From: Marsupella aquatica
Taxonomy: Eukaryota > Plantae > Marchantiophyta
NCBI GenBank assembly: GCA_973895155.1
Contig: OZ316891.1
Location: 28,525,145 to 28,589,144, forward strand
Direction: 5' to 3'
Length of the DNA: 64,000 bases
Below are positions 7,801 to 64,000 of this stretch, piece by piece. The notes beneath the pieces were generated by a model. That model worked only from the letters and a program-made list of their open reading frames with translations. It made no database searches and was not told the DNA's origin. Position 1 is the first letter of the stretch, and the number at the start of each line of letters is the position of its first letter. The position numbers and the translations under genes were made by a program.

Positions 7801-9483
7801 ACCAATTGGCTAGGGGATTTGCCTCGAACTGAGAGAGATCCCAGGTTCAATCCCCCCTCCACACACTGGGGTATTTGTGTGTGGGTGGGATAAGTTTTGT
7901 GGGTAGTGAATTGGAGTTCTGATTATTTGCTTGGCCCCTGGTCGTCCACTTTGTGGTCCTGATTTAATCCTCTCTCCTTCCTGGTGCGGGTCTCTGTCTG
8001 ATCCCTTGGGGCTCACCCTGGTCTGGGTTCCCTACAGAAAAACTGTCACATTGGGATGGGGGAGTCTAATTGTATTTCCTCTCCATTTCCGTTGAAGACA
8101 AAAAAATAAAATAAAAAATATATATATATTTATATATATAAAGAAGTCTAATTGTATTTCCTCTCCATTTCCGTTCAAGACAAAAAAAAAAATATATATA
8201 TATATATATAAACGAAAGAATTAATTTGAGAATCCTGCAGACGAATTAATTGAACTAGAAGAGAAATCGCACAGAAGTACTAAGTACTCGAAGAAGAAAA
8301 CGAAGCGCTGAACAACGAAAATGAATTGAACTGAGTGATTAAAGAAAGACGGTTTAGGATTGAAAACGAACGGCCGACCTTTTGCGCTACATCACGTGCA
8401 ACAACAGTCCCAGCGCGCACCCACGAGGCCATGTGTTCGAGAATAATGTTCTCAAAACTCTGGACCTGATCCCGGAGACCTTGTGGACCAACAGATTTCA
8501 GGATCAACTTCCTGATAGACAGATGCGGTGGACCCTCCTGGAAAGTAAACGTGGTGGGTCCGACAACTTGTTTGAAGCTTTCGGGGAATGCCCGTTGGAA
8601 GAGGCGGGGGTTGTTATGGACGAATTTGAGGAACTCCGGAGTTGTTCCACATATCGTTGCCCGTAGAAATATGTTCGTTTTGAACGTATTTCCATACCTG
8701 CATTGATCAACTCACAACTTTCAGACATTGAGTTAAGCGCTGAAGATGTTCTTAACATCCCCAATTTGCAATTGATTCGCTGCCCCCAATGGTCTGACAT
8801 CAACCCGAGCTCTAAACCATTCAGTCTAGTCCACTTAGATATTTCGGACTGTCTTTGAGCGGGGGACATGCATCTACCTACACAGGGACATTGCCTGCCA
8901 AAATTCTTTCCTTCACTTTCGCTAGTGAACTGGAAGCCTTTCTCCTGGCCGAGAGAGAGTCAGTGACAAGCCAGAAAGCAAGATGACATGCTCGAAAGCA
9001 AGATGCCGAAGGTATATAATCACAGGAATAATTAAGGTACTTGTCGTTCCCTAGTTAAGTGCCCACGTACCATTCTAGGCAAGAAGAGATCCATAATGAT
9101 GGGACATCATCGAGCATGCGCCAAGCCAAAATCATTACTGAATTCATGAACAAGAGATTTACCTGCAGAAGCCAACTCAAGATCATGTCTGTTCCATTCA
9201 TGAATAGAGATTACCTCCTGACGTGAGAATGAGCAAATTCTAATGGGTCGTGGACAAAGTCCAATGATTCTCCAACGATAGGCCAGCCCAGCGAGCCTTT
9301 GGGCAGCACGGCATCGGGCCTTCGACATGAGTACAGAGTGTATGATCGCTGCACCCACAACAGAATAGCCCCGCCCAGCACCACTGCCAGAATTATCGAT
9401 AATGTCGACAGCGCTAAGTCCCCCATCAGTGTGTATCTTAAAAATGTGGACAACACCGACTCCCCCATCTGTGACTGTCTCAA
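4843..9483 (-). CDS. Cytochrome P450, CYP85 clan (CYP707/716/90-like), 9 exons, apparently intact
   Basis: GT-AG exons read by hand: 9483-9215, 8697-8379, 7705-7547, 7215-6949, 6661-6566, 6307-6229, 5865-5762, 5598-5480, 4942-4843. Motifs: TM anchor, LPKGSLGWPIVGES, RYGNTFKTNIF, ExxR (EVQR), IPKGW, FNPDRF, heme FSTGPHMCPG. The start could also be the next Met (MGES). Confidence 0.9.
7797..8211 (+). mobile_element. Probable tRNA-derived SINE in P450 intron 2
   Basis: tRNA-like head (accaattggctagg; B box ggttcaatcc at 7844-7853), short body, and a 3' end agtctaattgtatttcctctccatttccgttSaagac plus A/AT tail present twice (8063-8210). Confidence 0.6.
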
Positions 9484-51022: not shown

Positions 51023-54000
51023 CTTCTGTCTCAAGTTTAGAACGTCAAATTAAAGATTCCATGGATTGTTTTATTACTAACGATTGTAATAAGAATTAAA
51101 GAATAGGAGTTCGATCCATATATTGGATCGAGTAGATATTGTTTAGATCTCGTAGCAAATAAGTAAAATCTGAACTTGTACGAAATCTAGTGGGGTTTGT
51201 GTTCAAATGTGAAGAAAGGAGAAAGAGAATCAAAACAAGTAGAGGTGAAAAATAGTTCAAGGAGTAAAGTGTGTTCCATCCTTAAACAACCAGAATTTGT
51301 TCCCGTTAAGAGTTTGTGAGACCTAAACGATCATTCTAGTACACTTTGAGATGTTGAAGCCAACATTTCTCAAGTTGGGAAAAGTTTTCTGACATTTTCA
51401 AGTCTTGAGTAGTTTAAATACTTAACTCAGTTATTGCAATGTTATATCCATAGTGCAAGAACAAAAGCTAAATTAATACACTAGGAATGGTCTAATCATA
51501 GATATACTATGCCATACCCAGATCGCATCCCGCACGTAACCCCTAGCGGCCGATGAATTCACTATTTTCCACCACTGTCTTCATTGAGGTCCTCCATTGT
51601 TCTGGGGTGAAATCTGCACGGCCTTGGAAAACCTGCGTGGACAGTAAACATTTCAATCATTCACTGTAATATGCATGAAAGATGCATGAAGTAAATAGAG
51701 TATGGAGATTCCTACTGCGATGCTGTAATTCGATGATCACATCACCAATCAGACGTTGATCTTGCATTAAAGCATGCTTCGTTTAGGGTCGGAGGTAAAC
51801 GGGGATGGCTGGCCAGCCTTGGGTTCAGATGATGATTAGTTTCAACGTTCTCGCCTGGGTTGCATTGTATGGTGGGATGGAAGTTGCCCGGCCGGGCTTG
51901 GAAAGGAATACATGGAGGGGTTGGTGTCGAGGTTGGGGAAACATCTGTCCATTCAGTCGAGTACAACACCTGTGAACAGATTTACATTGGAAACAATTAA
52001 TCATACGTGCATACTATATAATTTAACAAGAAATAGTATGCATTCGATCTATACATCTGAGAATTGTCCAAAGAAATAGGTACGTATTAACTTCCTGTAC
52101 TCAACAAGCGATCGCGCGAACTTTCAATGAACAACAGTCGACCTCCTCAGCCGTCGTTGTAAGGGCCCATCGTGGACTTTGGTACCAAAGTCCATCATCT
52201 GTTGTGTGCTTCTTGCGGAGGTGGAGAATTGAACATTGGAAATGGGAGATGCAGTGCCTTTGTCACCGTTTTGTAACCGAACGAGGAATGATTGTTTCCG
52301 CGGAAGAAAAACAATCCATCTAAAGTGGTGGGACGATTGACGTGTGCCTTATCTCCATGAAATCCGTAAACGGTATTTTGCCACATAGGATGCCTTCCTC
52401 AAAATCAGGCAAGCCATTACTTCTGCAAGTTTTGGCTTTGGATTCTGGAGGCGTGGCATGCGGTTGTCTCCTCCGAAGTAGTGGACTGCCCTTCACATAA
52501 ATCCAAAGTGCGTGGACTTATTGAGTGGGGGAAATTAAATCACACTAGTACATTTTGAGGCATTTTACCGATTGTATTTCCATCGGACGCCTTCAGGAAA
52601 TCCGACGTGGAAATCTCGCCTGTCCGATAACAAAAGAATCGCATTTTGCGATGTAATTTGCATTGAAAAATGATAATCGGAAACCAATCGGAACTACCGA
52701 TACTAAAACATTCGGTAGTTCCATCCTCTAAACTGTTGGGAAACACTATCTCCGATGCCCGTTTAATCAGATGTCTGTTCCGCGCATTTTCTGTTAACGG
52801 AGGCGTTCGATTCTATTCCGATAGTCTGGACATGGAAATGTCCAATTGTTTTAACATCGCAAATGTCCAATTTGTTTTGGAACGGAAATTGCGATTATAG
52901 TGGAATCGGACTTTGCGATACTTTGGGGATGGAAAAGTACGATGAGTGTGGCATCGGATATGGATCGGTATCTATCGGAAACTATTTGGCAAGCTTGATT
53001 GGGCCGATTTTAAATGGGGGGCTAATTGGGGGTTTAATTGGGGTGCAATTTAATTCTTTAACTGAATTTTTATTTAGGGTTTAGAGAGGTCATTTAAACA
53101 CGATTTTGGACCGACCGAGAAGTGTGTCGGAGTTCTCGTTTAGCCCAATCTCGTTTTTTTCTAAGGCAATGCAATGACCGATAAAACTGGAAAAAACTCT
53201 CCGAAACGCCACTTTCCTCCATTGCATCACCGCGGGAATGCAGGGAGCGATACGTGCATCGGGTTTTACATTCCGTCAGTGAAAAAGTCCGAACTGCGAG
53301 TAACTTGGTCCGAACCGCGTAATCCAGGAACGACCATGCACTAACCCAGGTAAAGGGGAAACTTAACCATGGTTAAGGGGAAATTAACCATGGTTTAGAG
53401 CGTCTCTTATATAAAGAGGAGCGGGCTGCCCATAAAACGTTTGCTTTCGCCAGAGCAAATATCTCCTGACTGAGAGCGAATACCAAACTCCCATCAAGTC
53501 TTACATTCCTCCCAAGCGATTCGACTCTTTCTACCAAAAACCCGATAAATTTATCGGAACAGCCATTCATGTTCAAGTTCTCCATGTAAGACTAACTAGT
53601 CATTTAGTGTAAAATGTCCAGATCCGAGCGGACTGCAATAAATTTATCGCATTCTGCATTCCTCTGTTGCAATCATTTGATCCAGTGTTTAGAGAGGTGT
53701 TTCCTTCATTCCGATAAATTTATCGGAGTCTTCATTCCTTTCATGGAAAGAGGAGTAATTGAGAATCTGATAAATTTATCGGAGTTGTCATTTTTGTGAA
53801 AGATTGAATTCAGGGGTTAGGTGCTTGAGGAAGTCATATTTTCAATTCGAATGCGGAGTGCGATAAACTTATCGCATCCTCCTGTGAGAATCATTTTCCT
53901 TTGTTTTGTTTGGAGACTCATCTTCATCTCTGATGTCGCAGTGTTGTCGGGTTTAGGAGGCACAACGGAAGGTCGATTGCACTCCGTGGACAACAGGTAT

Positions 54001-54532
54001 TGTGACAAATGGTTGTCTTCCTTGAAAATCGTGTCAAACATGCACGCCGGTTGTACAAGAGACTCGTGCGACTCAAAGTTCTCCCCATCGGTATAGGAGC
54101 ATTGTGGATGGGTGGTAGTGATCCTGGAGATAGGCAAAATCCTCTCCGCATTGAATTCTGCGGAATGAATGATGCAGGAGTTCCAATTTGTTCGAGGTTG
54201 ATGTTAACGGCGTGTTTACATTCTTTGGAGTTTTCTTGTAACTATTGTTGTCGTCGTCTTGACAACAAGTACCACAAACAGGCTCACTTCTGTTGTAAGA
54301 TTTGGAACGAAGACCCTTGGGTGAACCTTTCACGATGAGTGTTTCGACCTTTGCATTGAGGCGCGTCTTGTAAGGACATATCTAAATAAACAAGTCCTAC
54401 CCTTGCGCAGCGAATATAATACGTCACAAGTCCTAATCGTTAAACTGTCGTGCAGGGTTGGTATTGTGGATGTGTTTGGTTACACCTGGTGATTGAAGGT
54501 ATTTTTATTGGTGGTTTTGGTAGCTCTGCTTC

Positions 54533-55081
54533 ATGGCTGCATCGGAGAATCTAATCGTTGCAAAGATGGGATCCGTTTTAGCCCACGAGCGTAGGAAATA
54601 TATTCGAGGAAAAGTGCCCGGTGTGGAATGCGGAAGTTTGTTGAATGGACTTCTCGATGAACTCGTTGAATCTCACATTTGGCCCCTCCTAGCCTTGTCT
54701 TGCACACAAGATGAACACCTTGGCCTTGACCTAAAACTTCTACCAGAAGAACGACTGACTCGAATGAGAACAATCATTTGTCTTGGAGCCACCTCAAAGA
54801 AATGGAACCATCTTGTTGTTGGTACACAATTTTGGGCGCTATTGAAATATGCAGTCCGTGAGATCAATGACATAAACAAAATGCTCGCAAGCATTCCTAA
54901 TGCCGACCTTCTCTCAAACATACATATTGCTAGGGTCTTCCGAGAGGAAACTCATTTCCTCCCTCCCATAGATATGCTTGGGTGCTTTTCGTATGAGCAG
55001 TTAGATCAGTTTCGTAGAGTTTGGATAAATCTTGGAGAAAGCGGGAAGCGGACAATTCTTGCATGGCATGGACAAGTCTGA
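54533..55081 (+). CDS. Transposon cargo protein, 182 aa, F-box-like N-terminal motif
   Basis: Open ATG-to-stop ORF; LLNGLLDELVESHIWPLL...LGATSKKWNHLV...FW resembles an F-box pattern (by eye only). Confidence 0.5.
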   Translation: MAASENLIVAKMGSVLAHERRKYIRGKVPGVECGSLLNGLLDELVESHIWPLLALSCTQDEHLGLDLKLLPEERLTRMRTIICLGATSKKWNHLVVGTQFWALLKYAVREINDINKMLASIPNADLLSNIHIARVFREETHFLPPIDMLGCFSYEQLDQFRRVWINLGESGKRTILAWHGQV

Positions 55082-55396
55082 GTGGATGAGGCATTGCTGT
55101 GAACATCCGATAAATTTATCGCACTCCTCATTCCTCTAGTCGATTTTGGGTGCTCTAAGGTTTTCTCGAGAAGAGCTTGTAAAGAAACACTTTGAATGTA
55201 ACTGACTCTGCCTCCCCTGACTCCGGGTTGTGTGGTCCAGAGTGTATTTGTTTGCGCCTCTTCGGACGATTAGCTGACAAGTGCATTGGCTTCACAACCC
55301 ATTATACAAGGTACTGTAAAGTTGGATGAAACTTGTAGAATTGTAATTAGTATGTTCTCCAAAAATTATTCCTGATTTCTATTCGGTGATCAGGCC

Positions 55397-56110
55397 ATGC
55401 TCGAGCGACACATTTTTGTACCCTACCCGGATCCTCCAGAATGGGGGAATGGAGCCATGCTAGACCAGCTAGGGAGGCTGGATGAGTCACTAATTTTAAA
55501 GATATGCAGGCTGGTAGTAAAACCATTTTACCATAACGCATTTCACTTCTACGTAGATCAGGTAGGGGGAGAAATTTATATTCGGTGGGATAGATATGTT
55601 GGATTTTCTAGAAGAGTTATCCTACTCTTTCTGAAAACCGGTGCAGTAAGACATTTTATACTCCACTGCTGTCATGTTGTGAAGGGCAATCCTGCTTATG
55701 AGCCAGAATTCTATGCCGACAACAGACGTAGAGCATTCGATGAGATTCAGGATGTGATTGACGAGCTGGACAATCCTCTTGCCACCGAGTTTTTTATTGA
55801 CACTGGTGGGAAACTATATTCATACAAGATTCGTCAACTCCCCCCCCAGCCGGTCTGTGCGCTCTTTAACTTGATCTATGTAAATTGCCTGTGGACGAAC
55901 GTCCTTGCCAGTGGTGAGATCTGTCCATGCTGCACAAATGCTTATTGTGACATTCCGTCACGCCGGTATTCAGTAGCAGTAGTGAATCCTGAGACTGGTG
56001 AAGTTGATTTCCATTGGCTGTGGGGTTATGATCATCGCGTCACTCATATTCCCCAATGGCCCAAGAAGCGGATCAAACGCTTTGCTCTGGCGAGGTTCAA
56101 CTATGATTAG
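55397..56110 (+). CDS. Transposon cargo protein of unknown function, 237 aa
   Basis: Long ATG ORF with protein-like composition and a Cys cluster (CPCCTNAYC). Confidence 0.55.
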   Translation: MLERHIFVPYPDPPEWGNGAMLDQLGRLDESLILKICRLVVKPFYHNAFHFYVDQVGGEIYIRWDRYVGFSRRVILLFLKTGAVRHFILHCCHVVKGNPAYEPEFYADNRRRAFDEIQDVIDELDNPLATEFFIDTGGKLYSYKIRQLPPQPVCALFNLIYVNCLWTNVLASGEICPCCTNAYCDIPSRRYSVAVVNPETGEVDFHWLWGYDHRVTHIPQWPKKRIKRFALARFNYD

Positions 56111-58007
56111 GGTTTAGGTTTAGGGGTTAAGGTTTTGGATTTAGGGTTCCATAGCTGATTCTTCGACCTGTACACTCGGCCGTCAATTTAAAGAAGGCTC
56201 ACTTTTGCGATAATTGTATCGGTCTCTTTGTCCTTGTGTGATGAGATGTCGTGTCCACATGTGCTGTGAGATTGGCGGCAATAATTTTATTGCTCTTTGC
56301 ATTGGAATTTGTTTATTTGCAGACTTTGCCATGGCTGCTAGTGGAAAGAGTGGATCTGCTGAGGCAGAAAGTCTCATGACAAGCCTCACCAATGCAATTT
56401 GGACGAGTGAAGACATTTGTGAAGAGGTCAAGTGTATCAAGAAGTCATGGTACTTCCGTGACACCAGATTACAGTCCACGGGTTTTGAAGATTGTGCTAC
56501 CCCAATCCTTTGGGTCCAGTTGCAAAAATTGGCGAAGGTTAATGTTTCGTATGGCCCTGTTATTGCTATTGCCGTCGTCGAGTTCATGGTTGGCCACGGG
56601 GAGGGAAAAGTGTTGACAGAGGGCCTTAGTTTCTTGACAATGTGTGGGCGCAAGGGTTTCACATCTCTCATTGTTACTCTCGATAACTTTGATGAGAAAT
56701 TGATGGACAGTTATCCAGAAGATCCCCTTGTTGCCAAAGTTCGGGCAACAAGAGAGATGAATGTTATGGGTTTGGCTTGGATCGGCCAGTATGTGCAAGA
56801 TTGTGATGCCATCATGCTTCCAAGGGTGAACGCAGAGTACAAGAGACTTGTGGGTGAAGAGTTCAAACCTGTCCGCAAAATTGTTTTCAAGAAACCAGGT
56901 TCAGGTGGCAGCGGTGGTTCTAATGCCGATAAAATGTCAGGGCGGAAAGAACCATTGCAATCCTCTACACATATTGACGTGGACGAACCTACAACTTCTG
57001 GTCGGGTTTCGGGAAGTGGAAGAGGGAAAGGGAGAGGTAGCGGTAGGGGAGATGCCGCGGGAACCTCTGACGGTGGGAAGAAGAGCCAGGAAACTGGCGG
57101 TAGTGGGAGAGGCCGGGGCAACCGTCGAGGACCATCCGTTAAACCAAGCGAAAGTAAAGGATCCGAGGGATCCGGGCCATCTGGTTTCGGACTTAGCACA
57201 AAGAGGAAGAGGACTGGCTGGACTAAGACGGTGGCTGCAGAAGTAGATAGAGCTCCGTCAATTCCATCAGTTCCAGTTGCGGTTCCTGCGGCGCCATTGG
57301 TAAGTACTACGTCGTTGTACTGTTTAACAAATACAAAATCCGATAAAAATCTCACTGTTTATTTCCTGAATTGCGGATTGTGGAGTTATGTTGAACAAAT
57401 GCGAACTCCGATAAAAATCTCGCAGTTTCTTTCCTTAATTGAATTTGCAACGCTTTTGTAGGCTGATCAGGAGGAGGAGACGGCTCTTTTGATGTATGAG
57501 ACGGACGCGATCAAGGCAGAGCTCAGTCTTCTGATGCAACGAAGGGTGCAAAGGACAACTGTGCTTCTGCATGTCAACAATCTCATATTTGATGAGGAGG
57601 GGGATTTGTCAACTTTGATTAGACCAGTGGATAGATTGCATGTGGAAAATATCAAGATACTACTCATGAAAAACCCCACCAACTTCAGTGCCCCGTTCGT
57701 GCTGTGTGTGGATCCGAAGGATTGTCCCACAACCGCAGATTGAGACATCCTGAAGTCAAGGGTATGGAAGTATAGAATTATTGGAGGGAATCATGGTGCT
57801 CGGGCAAAATGTACGGGAAGCAAATATATGGTGAGCTGGAAGCTTGGGTTTACGCTGGGCTTACGAGATCCGAGGTCCGAAAGTTAGGCTTCCAGCATAA
57901 CTATGACCAGGAGTCTCAGAAGAACATGACTAAAATTGACCAAGTTCGCGCTTGTCACAATATTTTCCTTGAAATGGGTGTGGGCTCGACTAAAGATGTC
58001 CGCGAAG

Positions 58008-58354
58008 GGTCAATTGCAAGCTTGAGGGGGGCAAAAAGGATATCCAATTTCTCCACCAAAAGGATTCTAGTCCTTCCCAATTTACAAGGGGTGGACAAGG
58101 TGTTACAGCAAATGGCTAGGATTAGTTTGTTGAGATTGGATGGTGAGATCTTGCATGCCAAGTCTTTGGAAGTGTGTCCAGGCTTTTAGGAAGTCCCAAT
58201 CTTCTTGGAAGTGTGCACAACAATTTTGGAAGTGTGTCAAACCTTTATGGAAGTGGTGTTCAACTAAATCTTTATGATCTTTGAGTCCTTTTTCTCTCCT
58301 TTTTGAGCTAATCCTTTTTGTGTCCTTTTGCCCCCCTCAATCTTGCAATTGACC
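58008..58354. mobile_element. 347-bp MITE with ~34-bp TIRs and a 4-bp TSD (GAAG)
   Basis: Left ggtcaattgcaagcttgaggggggcaaaaagga matches the reverse complement of right tccttttgcccccctcaatcttgcaattgacc; GAAG at 58004-58007 and 58355-58358. Removing it restores ...KDVREACCQEC. Confidence 0.92.
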
Positions 58355-58889
58355 GAAGCATGTTGTCAAGAATGCATGATGGAGTACACGCCAGGAGTTC
58401 GTGACTCCATGGCCAAACATGATCCGGCTTTCCAAATTGCTTTCCGAACAGGTGAAATTTGGGATCTTCAGGAGCAGATTTTCCAGATGTGGGAGAAAGG
58501 TATTGTCTTAGGACAACCCAAAAAAATTGTGGCAACGACGAACGCAAAGGGAAAGGTAAAACCTTTGACGGTAAGGGAGATTAAAATGAATAAACTTGCT
58601 GGTGACCTCAACTTAAATTCATTTCGAGGTCTCCAAGGACTGTCAAATAAGGAGCATGTCAAGCGTCTCTTGAACAGGGTTATCGGGAAGGTGATCACTT
58701 TGGATCAAATGCACAAGGAAGGTGAGAAGTTGAAAAAGCTTGCCAAGGTGAAGAAACTATTTTTGCAGATATCTAGTCAGCCAGATTGGGCAACATGCAG
58801 AGAAATGTTTCCCAACGAAACAGATGTCTCGGTCCTTGGCATATGGGCGGAGAAATTGAGTGACGCGGTAAGCATTCCTCTCACAACAT

Positions 58890-59075
58890 GCTCTATCGCG
58901 AGATTTTTATCAGCTTTAGCATTCCTTTGTTGGTTTCTAAGCGATTGCATCTATCAGCTAGCGTGCTCCATCGCGAGATTTTTATCGGCTTTAGCATTCC
59001 TTTGTTGGTTTCTAAGCGATTCCATCTATTGGCTAGCGTGCTGCATCGCGAGATTTTTATCGGCTTTAGCATTCA
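58890..59075. repeat. 75-bp tandem repeat (~2.5 copies) in the last intron of the ParB-MTase gene
   Basis: atcgcgagatttttatcRgctttagcattc... occurs three times, each unit carrying a palindrome variant. Confidence 0.9.
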
Positions 59076-60583
59076 TCTCACGCTATTCTAACTGTAGATG
59101 TGTTTGACATTTTTACAGCTGAAGATTAATTCAAAAAGGAAAAGCAAAGTGGTTCCGGCTGTCACTTATAATTCTGCGGGGGAGGTTATTGTTCCCTCAA
59201 CTGAAATCCCTTATGTGTTTAAGAATTTTGTGCTTGCTGCAATCGATAAGTACAATCGTCTGAGGTCCTTAGGCGAGGGCACAGCAGAAGCGTTTGAACA
59301 AACATGGAAAAATGCAGACGGGGATTCTTTTCCCTACTATCTCCATGTTGGTGATGTTCAAATTTTGGATTCTTTTGTTCAGCCAAGGGCTTACACCCTT
59401 GCGGTTGCGGATATTCCGTATGGTTTTAATGCTCCTGGTTCGGAGTTTGATGAAGTGGCCTTCACAGAAAAGGATATTTTAGACATGTTGACAAGTTTCT
59501 CAAAGATGACAACCGCTAAGCAGTGGAGGTTTGTTGTGATCCATTCACTACAACAAACGCATATGGTGATGTCTGCACTGGAGAGTGTATGCAACTGTGG
59601 GGTCGAGGCTGGAATCTGGGAGAAGACTAACATTCATGAGCGTCCCGCTGGAGCTCAATTGGCGTGGGGTTTTGAGAACTGGTCGATAGGTTTCTATAGC
59701 GAGGAAGACATTTGGAACATGAACATGTACAATTTCCAACCGGATGAGTCTCGCGTCAATATCATCAAGGTTCCATGTGTAACCAAGAAGTTCGTTGATC
59801 TGTTGGGATTTGTTGTGAACCCATATCAGAAGCCTGTTGGGTTTGGGGGCTTGGTTTGTTTCCCATTTCTCTGAGAAAGAGGATTGGGTTATTGATCTTT
59901 GTTGTGGAACCGGATCGACATTAGCTGCTACGCTCCTCAATTCTCGCCAGGGTTGTGCTGTTGATAAGAGTTCTGCGCAGATTGATTTTGTAAAATCCCG
60001 GATCATGATTCTGGAGTCAAACTGGAATTTATATGAAGAATCCCAGATTGAAGGGCACGGCGTTGAAGGTCATGAGATTCAACCACCAATTGCAGGCCAA
60101 TTGGGTGTTCTCGGGACATCAACTTATGTAGTTGAGGTCGTGAAGGAGACCGAAGAGGAACAAGAAGAAACTGAGGAAGAGCCTCCCAGAACACCAAATG
60201 AGGATGATCTCAACGACATGTTATTAGATTAGTTGCGTGTGCTCGTTAGGATAATGTCAATCACCAATGGAGTTGTCGATAAATTTATCGGATTCTGTAT
60301 TCCATGAGGAAGAACCTTTGTCACATTTATTAATGCGATAAATTTATCGGACTTTGCATATATCAGACTGTCGCGGTGTTCTAGCTGGGGGAATGGAGTT
60401 GTCGATAATCTTATCGGACTTAGCATTGTATTCTCTAACTGGTTTGTCATTGCAATTATTTCAAAAAAAAAGATATCATTATAGCTGCGAAGTACATAGT
60501 CCCAGAACGATAACCACTGTACATATTCATGGGAACGATAACCATTATAACTTAAACCTACAACTAGCTTCGACTATCAACGA

Positions 60584-63500
60584 CTACAGTCTCCATTGCA
60601 TTTTTCGTCTTGTTTGTATAGGGAGAGTACTATTTGCCAATAACGCAAAGTTATACGCATAAACGGCAGTTTCTGCTAGGGACAATTCATCCTCCAGTAC
60701 TTTGCTAGATGAAGCCTCTTTCTCCGGATAATATCTACCTTCAATTGCAGACTCTTCCTCCGAATCCGTTGCATACCAAGTGATTTTAATCCGCTCCGGG
60801 ATGTCGTTAATTCTTGTGAGAATCTCAGTCACTTTTGCCATCCAGAATGGTCTTCCCTTGGGATCCTGATGGGCTGCTACACATATCATTGCAAATTTAG
60901 TATTCACCTCTAGATCCTTGAAGTCTCCAATTTCCGTGACTTTTCTTCGACTTCCGGAATACATGACTGTCCTCACACCCGCTACTTTATCAACCAAGCT
61001 AGGTTCCATTGCTGCTTCCGTAGGATTACTCGGAAGTTCTCTCTGTATGTTTACCTTGGGCCAACTCCAATCAAAACTCCATTGTGCAGGTTTCAGGTGG
61101 TGTTGAATCACTTCTTTTTGTTTGTCAAAAAAATGACCCCACCATAGACGATCTGCGTCGTCAAAGTAATTGAATCCATCTTCAATTGCTCTTCGATATT
61201 TTTGAAGAGTTGACAAATAACTTTGAGCCGCCCGCTCATCTTGTTCATCAGCATCATTCTCTTGCTCTTCATTGTCTCCTGTCGCTCCCGTGGCCGACTT
61301 CAATGCCATTTGTGGTGCGACCCACATTCCAGATGATGGAATGTACCAAACAAAATCCACCGTCTCCCCCCAATCGGTTGTCGTTGAAAGATGTTTGGCA
61401 TGGAATACGGACCGAGCACTTCCATCTTCGAGTACTCTAGTACTCCGAAATTGTTTTTGAGCACTTATGCCGTGGAGAGTACGTAGAACCTGACCATCCA
61501 TATCCTTGTCATTTGCTTGATCCTTGTCTGACACAAATTTCTTGAAATCAGCAACCTCGTCGACGAAAAATATCTTTGCCGTAGGATTGTAGGATTCCTC
61601 TATGATTGCTGAAAGAGTGTCCAACCGGAAAGCTTTCCACTTGTTCAATTTTGAAGAAAACTTGCTAAACATTTGATCAATTTGATCATGGGTGTGCCCC
61701 ACCAATAGGAAACCAACCTTTATTTTCTGGAAAACACCTATCTCCACCAACATATTCAAATATGCCATAAGATATTTATTCTTGTTTTCTCGAGCTGTGT
61801 TATCAAGCTGGAGGTAAAGCACTGGAGGGAGCAGACCTTCCCAGGTATTCAGAATATGCTGGATAACATGGATGGTCAGGTTGCTATCATTGTGAATATT
61901 TGGATAGTTCAAAAAACCATTTGAACTTAATTGTTTGTTGAAGATCAAACAACCCACTACGTGTACGGGGATGAAATACTTTTCATCCATATTCTTCGGA
62001 CACCGAATGAAATGAGGTAACTCTGTCTTCTTTTGATCCATTCCATCAATACAGATGCCCAAATATTTCTCCGGACTCTTGTAACATTTGCTCCGGTGCT
62101 TTGCTAACTTCTCCCTCTCGACTGCTTGTGCCTTCCGATGCTCGTTTAGCAATGTTGAGAATTTTCCTACAATAATAAAAATGTTTAGGACAAAACATGA
62201 TAACCGCAATGTTGAACCCTGACAACCATAAATTTATCGGGTTCAGTATTCAAACACGAGACCGTAATAATAAACCCTGACAACAATAGATTTATCGGGT
62301 TCAGTATTCAAACACAAGACCGTAATGAAAAACTGTGACAGCGATAAATTTATCAGGTTCAGTATTCAAGCTATTCAAACGATATATTCACTCACATGGC
62401 CAAAGAAGAAGCACATGAATACTCAACCCGATAAAATTATCGGGAGTAACACACAGGTTTAGAAACTTACTCTTTTCTGCTTCGAGTGTTGCCTTGTCAT
62501 GGAGTGCTTTGAATTCAGTACACGAGGCGCAGGTGGAGAAACGGCTCCTTTTGGGGATGCGCACGCGAGGAAACTCCTTGTTCCAAATGCGAACAAACCA
62601 CGAATATGTCATGCCTTGTTCTTGGCGCATTAGAGTTTCGGACTGGAAGGCATCAAAAACTTATGTTTTTGTCCAATTGTCAGGTAAATGAAAGATATCC
62701 TTGTTGGGGAGACTCTCGACATTTGTGGAAAAAAAATCATTCAGCCATTGGACGAGACCAAGATGTGCGGGTGATTTTTCTCGACAAATTGTACCGATCT
62801 GTATCCGAGAAAACATGTTCTGCGAGATTTTTTGGAGACGATTATTTCCTAGTGAAAATAATTTCTTAAAACCACTCCGACAAAAGGATCTACCGCTAAC
62901 TGAGTAACCACTTGCACCAGCATGCCCACCCTTCACACATCCTCTTAGAAGGACGTTCTTCTCTGGGTAGGATAGCCCATAGTAATAAGTGCGTTGTTTC
63001 ATCACGGCTAGCAGACCCAAATTCCTCAGACAGTAATTATCATAACACGAATACTTATGAATTTCTCTCATTTTGTTTCTATTCAATTCGTCATTTATCA
63101 CATTGTCTTTCCTAGTAATTCGGTCCCTATCTTTTTTACTAGGCTCATTTGACTTCTCTATAGCCTGAAATCCGTTCATAACATTGGCATTTTCGGGTCC
63201 TTCAGGTGCCTCGTGAATAGATGCATCACTCTCTGCTGAGCTACCATCCTCTATAGATCTCCTTGACGCATTTAGAGGGGCACTGAATAGACGACTATAA
63301 CTATTCTCTTCGACAGCTCCTTCTAAACATTCAGACACAACTTGTGCTATTATATCGGATTCTCTATCTCCTTCCTCATCTTCGTCCTCCGATGCACTCG
63401 ACTCATCTGAAAACACAATTGGACTCCGTGGCTCTCTATACATAACCCGAATGCCACTAAGACCTCTCCTCGATACTTGGAGCCTGGAACCAATGACAGT

Positions 63501-63605
63501 CCGCCCTTGAGAACTTGGAGATTCTGGATTCGCACGTGCAGTCCCAACGATTCCGTGAGCTGCTGGAAAATTGAGCACTTGTTCACCACAATTCCCACGG
63601 ACCAT
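60584..63605 (-). pseudogene. DDD-type DNA transposase (DUF7869/Sola-like), intron 62470-62167, in-frame stop at 62661-62663; 5' part probably extends further right
   Basis: Motifs FSTCASC, ICIDGMDQ, LYLQLDNTARENKN, FLLVGHTHDQIDQMFS; the GT-AG intron joins AEK-R-KFS in frame. Family name is from recall, not a search. Confidence 0.8.
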
Positions 63606-64000
63606 TCGAGAAAGGGCCGAGTCTGGACTTCACAGTCCGATTCCCTCGCTTGCTCGCACATCCAGTCCAGGCAATGCAAAGACCGATCGCCGTATCGGTC
63701 TTTGTATTTCTGTGTCCCAATCCTCACCCGGAGACTGAAAGATCTGTCGTTGAACTTGTGTTGAATGTGGCGACTTGAACGCCGACTGAGATACGCGTAT
63801 CAGTCGCCGGATACCCTCTCCATAACCCGGGATGGATGGCCTGAAGCGACGTCTCAGACCTAAACCTGGGATTGAAAGTTTCTCATTTCTTGGCGATGGA
63901 ACGCTCAAGAGACGACGCTTCTCAGGTTTACTAGGCGACACATAGTAAGCACTAGGCTCAGGACCAGAACTTGCATCAGAATCTGAGTCAGAGATTTTGG

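Follow-up and report, generated by a model that had tools for sequence, protein, structure and literature searches.

A predicted ParB-methyltransferase carried by a DNA transposon of the liverwort Marsupella aquatica, and its candidate palindromic target sites

Can a land-plant transposon encode a protein that recognises, and perhaps chemically marks, the transposon's own DNA? The question is raised by a 64,000-nucleotide stretch of Marsupella aquatica (GenBank assembly GCA_973895155.1, contig OZ316891.1, positions 28,525,145 to 28,589,144), called the window here, in which an earlier sequence-only reading had noticed a gene for a ParB-like protein fused to an amino-methyltransferase. We find a three-exon gene (56331–60232, forward strand) with a predicted ParB/sulfiredoxin (Srx)-fold domain, a helical linker and a predicted beta-class amino-methyltransferase, carried by a multi-copy DNA transposon whose left end is at 53097 and whose right end lies beyond 64000. 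The non-coding parts of the element hold repeated palindromes that are candidate target sites. The gene is real, conserved and transposon-borne, and it adds a land-plant case to a type of cargo known from short descriptions in algae; the candidate target frame is newly defined. Self-marking of the element, already proposed for algal transposons (PMC12477816; bioRxiv 10.1101/2025.02.11.637652), is plausible.

The element and its accessory gene

Contigs from public sequencing runs cease to match the window at 53095–53097 and continue into unlike flanks in three of the four runs listed (X1, six contigs; X3, five; X4, four), which fixes the left end at 53097. The summed contig depth climbs at this point and remains high through 64000. 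Read as contig depth rather than as copy number, a value of 21 for a difference-free piece against ~510 for adjoining near-identical pieces in run X1 suggests that the element is present in tens of copies. The open reading frame (ORF) lying convergently, tail-to-tail with the accessory gene as the sequence-only reading had it, matches the transposase family DUF7869 (PF25273) with E = 1.3e-48; we take this family to belong to the Sola (Sola1) superfamily, which is the basis of the label "Sola-like" in Table 1. With a transposase, many copies and a sharp end with unlike flanks, the element is a cut-and-paste DNA transposon. An inverted copy of the left terminus was not found in 60001–64000, and only the left end is inside the window. 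The extent first proposed, 56331–62209, set the limits of the element too narrowly.

The accessory gene had been expected to give one long protein once two GT–AG introns and a miniature inverted-repeat transposable element (MITE) were removed. The introns and the MITE are present, and the motifs lie in the expected places and order: IIGGNH at 57777–57794, DIPY at 59410–59421, PYQKP at 59821–59835 and DLCCGTGST at 59894–59920. A single frame does not emerge, however; a stop at 57741–57743, where relatives have tryptophan, and frameshifts near 57805 and 59839 remain. Contigs of other copies have 16 more letters at 57805 and one fewer near 59839, and they join across the MITE with 351 letters skipped (runs X1 and X2). 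Both genes of the window copy are broken, and its description as inactivated holds. The read-through product, with X at the breaks, has ~1040 residues and aligns over 590–820 columns with Chara, Riccia and metagenome proteins; its last ~700 residues are mostly alignable to P0015, P0108, Chara proteins and one Riccia protein at 20–27% identity.

A phmmer search with exon 3 gave 103 representatives at E ≤ 0.001. Of the 20 homologues looked up, those with names came from Chara braunii (4), Adiantum nelumboides (3), Riccia sorocarpa (2) and Ginkgo (1), the rest being metagenomic, and a further 19 matches include 15 Chara and 2 Riccia proteins. No longer homologue containing the window's exon 3 was found among 998 candidates. 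Scans of viral contigs and prokaryote genomes gave no confirmed relative, and neither did a viral-contig scan for relatives of the transposase lacking the accessory gene. A metagenome scan yielded 13 loci. Six of these (L001–L006, all from one metagenome record set) are close, with 57–66% identity to P0001, and share the exon breaks of the window gene wherever they reach them; in L001 and L002 all three exons have open frames. The convergent transposase is reached in four of the six (L002, for 28 codons only, L003, L004 and L006), whilst the other two end ~300–360 nt past the methylase stop. The window's transposase 3' exon is 63% identical to that of L006 over 525 residues. The gene is thus multi-copy transposon cargo linked to a transposase, as had been claimed, and not a single-copy host gene unlinked to one. 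Among the relatives, the transposase of L003 carries a stop and L005 has an altered motif I. The remaining loci, L007–L013, match at 36–43% over 40–65 residues with 0–1 sites and no transposase match, and serve as a control set rather than as family members.

Substitution patterns indicate that the methylase gene is under purifying selection in the six related loci. In most pairs the synonymous sites are saturated or nearly so, yet the non-synonymous rate (dN) is 0.06–0.49 across the parts encoding the ParB domain, the helical region and the methylase; for the pair L004–L005 dN is 0.06 and the synonymous rate (dS) 0.73. The N-terminal domain common to the window (56331–56880), L001 and L002 is also constrained, with proportions of non-synonymous differences (pN) of 0.44–0.47 against synonymous ones (pS) of 0.75–0.83. 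It has no family match, and nothing at E < 0.2 among the stored proteins. The protein tree is a quick one in which long branches meet and prokaryote rows are less than 30% filled, so it is used for local clades only and not for a donor. One long-branch group in it, P0146, P0153 and their relatives, reads DTPY or DAPY; its motif I is altered, and the C-terminus carries a finger-like domain rich in Cys.

Palindromic sites within the element

The 14-mer CGATAAATTTATCG matches the window at 20 places with up to three mismatches, and 18 of these are within 53543–62429. All ten sites within 56331–63629 fall outside exons, in a span whose non-coding share is 19%, and the MITE is free of them. In the relatives, site clusters occupy the matching gaps (intron 1 in L001, L002 and L004; intron 2 in L001–L005), and L006 has an intron with a palindrome site at about the same place as the transposase intron of the window. 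The relatives lack the window's 14-mer and have versions of their own, GAGCGAGACnnGTCTCGCTC-type in L001 and L003–L006 and CCGATGTTTGGATCGG-type in L002.

Constant to all of these is the frame CGA-N8-TCG. The element has 16 such sites where shuffles give 1.6, compared with 10 against 9.8 in the flank, and L001–L006 have 12, 22, 6, 8, 5 and 3, respectively, where shuffles give 0.6–1.2. A spacer of 8 gives 72 sites, whilst every other spacer from 0 to 16 gives at most 13. The three inner sequences fall on three protein subclades in the quick tree, a match that shows co-inheritance only, since kin share labels. Retention of CG in the sites, 32 of 46 on a loose site list, is uninformative. In L001, a TATA-like box with a weak 13-nt match (E = 0.08) lies ~610–640 nt 5' of the methylase start, and sites run from this box to the start codon in the absence of the window's extra ORFs (54006–56110); these ORFs are therefore unlikely to encode a general binder.

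Table 1 Features of the element in the window (positions are those of the window)
Feature	Position	Strand	Basis or remark
DNA transposon, Sola-like by its DUF7869 transposase	53097..64000		Contig breakpoints, depth
Promoter-like stretch: 22-nt tandem repeat, then TATA-like box	53342..53415	+	Repeat is 53342–53395
Five CGATAAATTTATCG-type sites near left end	53543, 53636, 53712, 53768, 53861 (53543..53874)		Motif scan
Extra cargo ORFs	54006–54338, 54524–55081, 55376–56110	+	One palindrome between, 55108
Two palindrome sites just 5' of methylase start codon	56208, 56279 (56208..56292)		Motif scan
Exon 1: N-terminal domain (~180 residues) and Gly/Ser-rich linker	56331..57299	+	27–32% identity to L001, L002
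Predicted intron 1, GT–AG, 162 nt, phase 0, two palindrome variants	57300..57461	+	Frames, splice letters, direct repeat
Palindrome variants, intron 1	57341, 57409	+	Motif scan
Exon 2, first part: predicted ParB/Srx-fold domain and start of helical region	57462..58007	+	50–58% identity to L001, L002, L004
MITE, 347 nt, interrupting exon 2	58008..58354		29-nt arms 97% complementary, 4-nt duplication either side
Exon 2, second part: helical region	58355..58867	+	48–57% identity to L001, L002, L004, L005
Predicted intron 2, GT–AG, 251 nt, phase 0	58868..59118	+	75-nt tandem repeat with three palindrome variants
Palindrome variants, intron 2	58899, 58974, 59049	+	Within 75-nt tandem repeat
Exon 3: predicted beta-class amino-methyltransferase and acidic tail	59119..60232	+	DIPY, then PYQKP, then DLCCGTGS
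Three palindrome sites between both stop codons	60277, 60336, 60403 (60277..60416)		Motif scan
Transposase 3' exon	60584..62166	-	PF25273; acidic residues in IDGMD, QLDN, HDQID
Predicted transposase intron, 58-nt tandem repeat, four palindrome sites	62167..62470	-	Sites 62226, 62284, 62342, 62429
Transposase 5' part (position of start codon provisional)	62471..63629	-	In-frame stop 62661–62663; L006 reads through there

Predicted activity and competing explanations

How might gene and sites be connected? The reading we favour, at about even odds, is that the predicted ParB-methylase binds the palindromes as a dimer and deposits N6-methyladenine (6mA) on the element that encodes it, which would probably counter host silencing much as VANC does. 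The accessory protein would dimerise, as has been suggested for beta-class methyltransferases (PMC7544214); the helical region after the ParB fold would read each half-site, the ParB fold would hold the dimer or spread it along nearby DNA, and the methyl group would be placed on adenine. The mark, or the bound protein, would then allow both promoters to remain in use, a role that VANC plays for VANDAL elements. More tentatively, and with some doubt, land-plant transposons may in general use a private parS-like addressing, in which the ParB-methylase of each family would load at its own CGA-N8-TCG sites, spread along the element and write 6mA (or N4-methylcytosine, 4mC). If true, multicellular plants from Chara to liverworts, ferns and Ginkgo would carry a DNA mark that is encoded by transposons and programmed by sequence; 6mA has been described as lost from major multicellular lineages (bioRxiv 10.64898/2026.05.21.726589).

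The class of the catalytic domain is consistent between profile and fold. The profile PF01555 scores above its cut-off in 15 of the 27 homologues scanned, and the family profile finds M1.HpyAVI (E = 3e-13) and CcrM (1e-12) first, then M.MboIIA and M.BceJIV, with N4CMT at 3e-6 and M.PvuII at 1e-3. Structure models were made for two homologues, P0122 (mean predicted local distance difference test, pLDDT, 70) and P0015 (mean pLDDT 75), which match CcrM with Z = 23.1 and Z = 22.6 (root-mean-square deviation, rmsd, 3.0; 218 aligned), respectively. Adenine enzymes rank at Z 20–23, and N4CMT and M.PvuII at Z ~19. By its permuted fold and the order of motif IV before motif I, the domain is thus a predicted beta-class amino-methyltransferase, in agreement with the sequence-only reading.

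Motif IV, DIPY in the window, reads D-x-P-Y in 62 of 92 aligned matches. Since the nearest phage methylases read DLPY at this position, D-x-P-Y looks inherited rather than decayed, and with the first and last catalytic residues kept, methylase activity would still be possible. It is unlikely, but a serious alternative, that the predicted protein binds the palindromes without methylating them, as a regulator or shield like KorB or VirB, the methylase fold serving for dimerisation or for binding S-adenosylmethionine. KorB and VirB do regulate genes with a ParB fold (PMC12704722), the sites cluster between the TATA-like box and the start codon, and motif IV is non-canonical, with eroded forms (DLPR, DILY and DFPC) in some relatives. 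Set against this, the close clade is under purifying selection and retains D, P-Y, NPYQKP and DLCCG-G throughout, D-x-P-Y prevails, and DLPY is common to phage methylases, whose activity is taken from annotation.

The target base could also differ. A distinctly unlikely variant keeps the same targeting but places 4mC on the two invariant CGs of each site, pre-empting host 5-methylcytosine (5mC). CGA and TCG are the only fixed letters of the site, N4CMT and M.PvuII have the same fold, and the best phage tblastn match is annotated N4-specific, yet elsewhere the near-identical phage protein carries an adenine-specific annotation. SPPY, which marks most 4mC enzymes (PMC8885841), occurs in 0 of 103 matches, and adenine enzymes come first by both profile and fold. 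The same motif bears on the earlier suggestion that such elements were the route by which 4mC writers of the MpDN4MT1 type entered liverworts, a suggestion that found no support: as a source of the Marchantia writers MpDN4MT1a/b the family has barely any credibility. Both are beta-class and the liverwort Riccia sorocarpa has homologues of the family, but MpDN4MT1 has TSPPY, groups with prokaryotic 4mC enzymes and is without extra domains, and there was no Marchantia among the named matches looked up, most matches being nameless.

The ParB/Srx core, also proposed in the sequence-only reading, is recovered in the model of P0015, and the accessory protein is predicted to have a ParB/sulfiredoxin fold. 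Residues ~83–236 of this model match PadC (Z 8.8, rmsd 3.2, 98 aligned), pNOB8 ParB (7.7), KorB (7.7), SerK (7.5) and sulfiredoxin (6.9), and proteins of this fold make up eight of rows 21–29 of the structure matches, each at a modest Z (5.7–8.8). SerK, SbnI and Atu1540 are taken here as ParB/Srx-family members, in part after PMC12704722. The P0122 sequence begins within the ParB domain, and its model accordingly lacks a folded one. Viral proteins match over their whole length (670–705 columns, BFVD), one of them labelled ParB/Sulfiredoxin, and an Atlas ParB_N cluster scoring 0.91–0.93 is a lead only. By sequence, no Pfam ParB match was found in the window proteins or the homologues scanned. 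A phmmer search of PDB with the methylase exon (exon 3) yielded no relevant match. Separately, the ParB-like region (P0123 residues 40–270; L002 1900–2970) scores 0.95–0.96 in Atlas against fungal DUF3723 and unnamed animal clusters, which hints that ParB-like proteins form a wider family in eukaryotes.

The region following the ParB fold is helical in both models, with four helices in P0015, and some alignments extend into these helices (pNOB8 ParB, 209 residues, rmsd 5.7; KorB, 135, rmsd 10). The ParB-plus-helical profile gave chance matches only, as did tblastn against phages, and the helical region has no specific fold match.

Several points weigh against dimeric binding followed by adenine methylation. 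Both folds were modelled on homologues ~25% identical to the window's protein rather than on that protein, and profile and fold searches of the ParB-plus-helical region gave no specific helix-turn-helix match. The arginine of GxxR, on which nucleotide binding by ParB folds depends (PMC12704722), is absent in this clade; the window, L001, L002 and L004 read GGNHGAR, and among 20 stored motif matches arginine follows H/N directly in none and one place later in 13. With this arginine missing, a CTP clamp is unproven. Motif IV is off the consensus (D/N/S)PP(Y/F/W) (PMC7544214), DPPY occurring in 1 of 103 matches, and Dam domains of retrotransposons were negative in E. coli (bioRxiv 10.64898/2026.05.21.726589). 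On the side of the sites, the pattern CGA-N8-TCG was widened after a narrower version missed L002, the three sites of L006 equal the shuffle maximum of 3, and the six close loci share a single record set.

A further point of this kind is that the transposase also travels with the sites and so could be their binder. It would be rather unlikely for the palindromes to be transposase-binding sites, with the ParB-methylase acting elsewhere or more loosely, for example by marking donor or new insertions and so timing transposition. Wherever a locus shows both, transposase and sites have been inherited together, sites gather close to the left end and within the transposase intron, and the lack of a recognised helix-turn-helix in the accessory protein fits as well. 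Sites are, however, also present in both methylase introns and between the genes, 4–7 kb from the left end, the MITE holds none in its 347 nt, and a two-fold symmetric 14–16-mer suits a ParB-type dimer (inferred from PMC12704722).

Genomic setting and comparison with known systems

The extra cargo ORFs of the window, as far as they were scanned, have no family match at E < 0.01 in Pfam, PHROGs or NCBIfam, and they are unmatched in the 640 nt upstream of the L001 methylase. One gives a faint F-box-like match (E = 0.06), and ORF 55376–56110 is rich in Cys and His. Degenerate plant telomere-like repeats lie at 56110–56150, between this ORF and the palindromes upstream of the methylase. The MITE contains a 21-nt tandem repeat and also matches further contigs, which makes it a repeat family of its own; judging by the 4-nt duplication, its mobiliser could be of Sola type. 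Contigs of three runs skip 1237 bases (62484–63720), which suggests an internally deleted subfamily.

To the left, 52543–53096 is a separate repeat starting with CACTA whose other copies continue past 53096; the right terminus of this repeat thus appears to be where the methylase-bearing element inserted. Further left, 11000–51000 is ~40 kb of plant mitochondrial-type DNA with 12 tRNA and four group II intron matches, a ccmF match, many split organellar ORFs and a CpG observed/expected ratio near 1 (not depleted). It presumably holds ccm and ribosomal protein genes, several of them in pieces. Between its nuclear-type flanks this stretch is likely to be a large mitochondrial insertion. The methylase element lies to the right of it in nuclear-type DNA, with exon CpG of 0.66–0.72, and in the left nuclear flank an ORF fragment at 8280–8711 appears to resemble a piece of cytochrome P450.

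Among known systems, one close by description is Sola1-1_Ec32 of Ectocarpus (PMC12477816), a large Sola element with a 1104-residue ParB plus N4/N6 methylase, similar in size to the protein here, on the strand opposite the transposase, for which self-binding and self-modification have been proposed. Its 4-bp target-site duplication is biased to end in A, which the four bases before 53097 would fit. It belongs to an alga rather than a land plant, and palindromes go unmentioned in the available text of that paper, which also cites green and red algal cases. The Plavaka elements of Bostrychia (bioRxiv 10.1101/2025.02.11.637652) likewise carry a methylase of the PF01555 family, in PAG2, and a ParB-like domain, in PAG3, with inverted-repeat arrays next to PAG3 proposed as its sites. 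There, however, two genes of an EnSpm-type element encode these domains, one joining ParB with a 2-oxoglutarate oxygenase and the other joining the methylase with SET, whereas the Marsupella element has ParB and methylase in one protein and sites spread over introns and gaps.

VANC of the Arabidopsis VANDAL elements (PMC5735166) is also transposon-encoded, and it acts on family-specific motifs in non-coding DNA of the element. These motifs, however, are 9-mers that lack palindromic symmetry and lie in a single orientation, and VANC brings about 5mC loss and is not described as a methylase in the available text. VANDAL/VANC has been called the only transposon described as modifying its own DNA (bioRxiv 10.1101/2025.02.11.637652). 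Phage ParB–N6_N4_Mtase fusions (PMC12704722) share the domain order, whole-length structural matches and the DLPY-type motif IV; the Marsupella gene differs in its introns, its added N-terminal domain, its long helical linker and the missing GxxR arginine. CcrM, M.BceJIV, M.MboIIA and M1.HpyAVI have the same fold and motif order, with DPPY in place of the family's D-[IVAF]-P-Y and no ParB-fold fusion. MpDN4MT1 (bioRxiv 10.1101/2021.02.12.428880) and N4CMT of bdelloid rotifers (PMC8885841) are also prokaryotic-type beta-class amino-methyltransferases in eukaryotes, but they are SPPY host genes that write 4mC, the former without an added domain and the latter with a chromodomain and a role in silencing transposons. 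ParB-linked methylases of other clades are mentioned in PMC4738411, and the available text on Dam domains in retrotransposons (bioRxiv 10.64898/2026.05.21.726589) does not mention ParB.

In the literature searched there was no land-plant description of ParB-methylase cargo or of these palindromes. The algal cargo was proposed without experiment, and the present family offers both intact-looking genes (L001 and L002) and a precise candidate site whose inner bases are family-specific. Binding, specificity swaps and the predicted mark are thus directly testable, and long-read data already available for plants can be inspected at defined positions.

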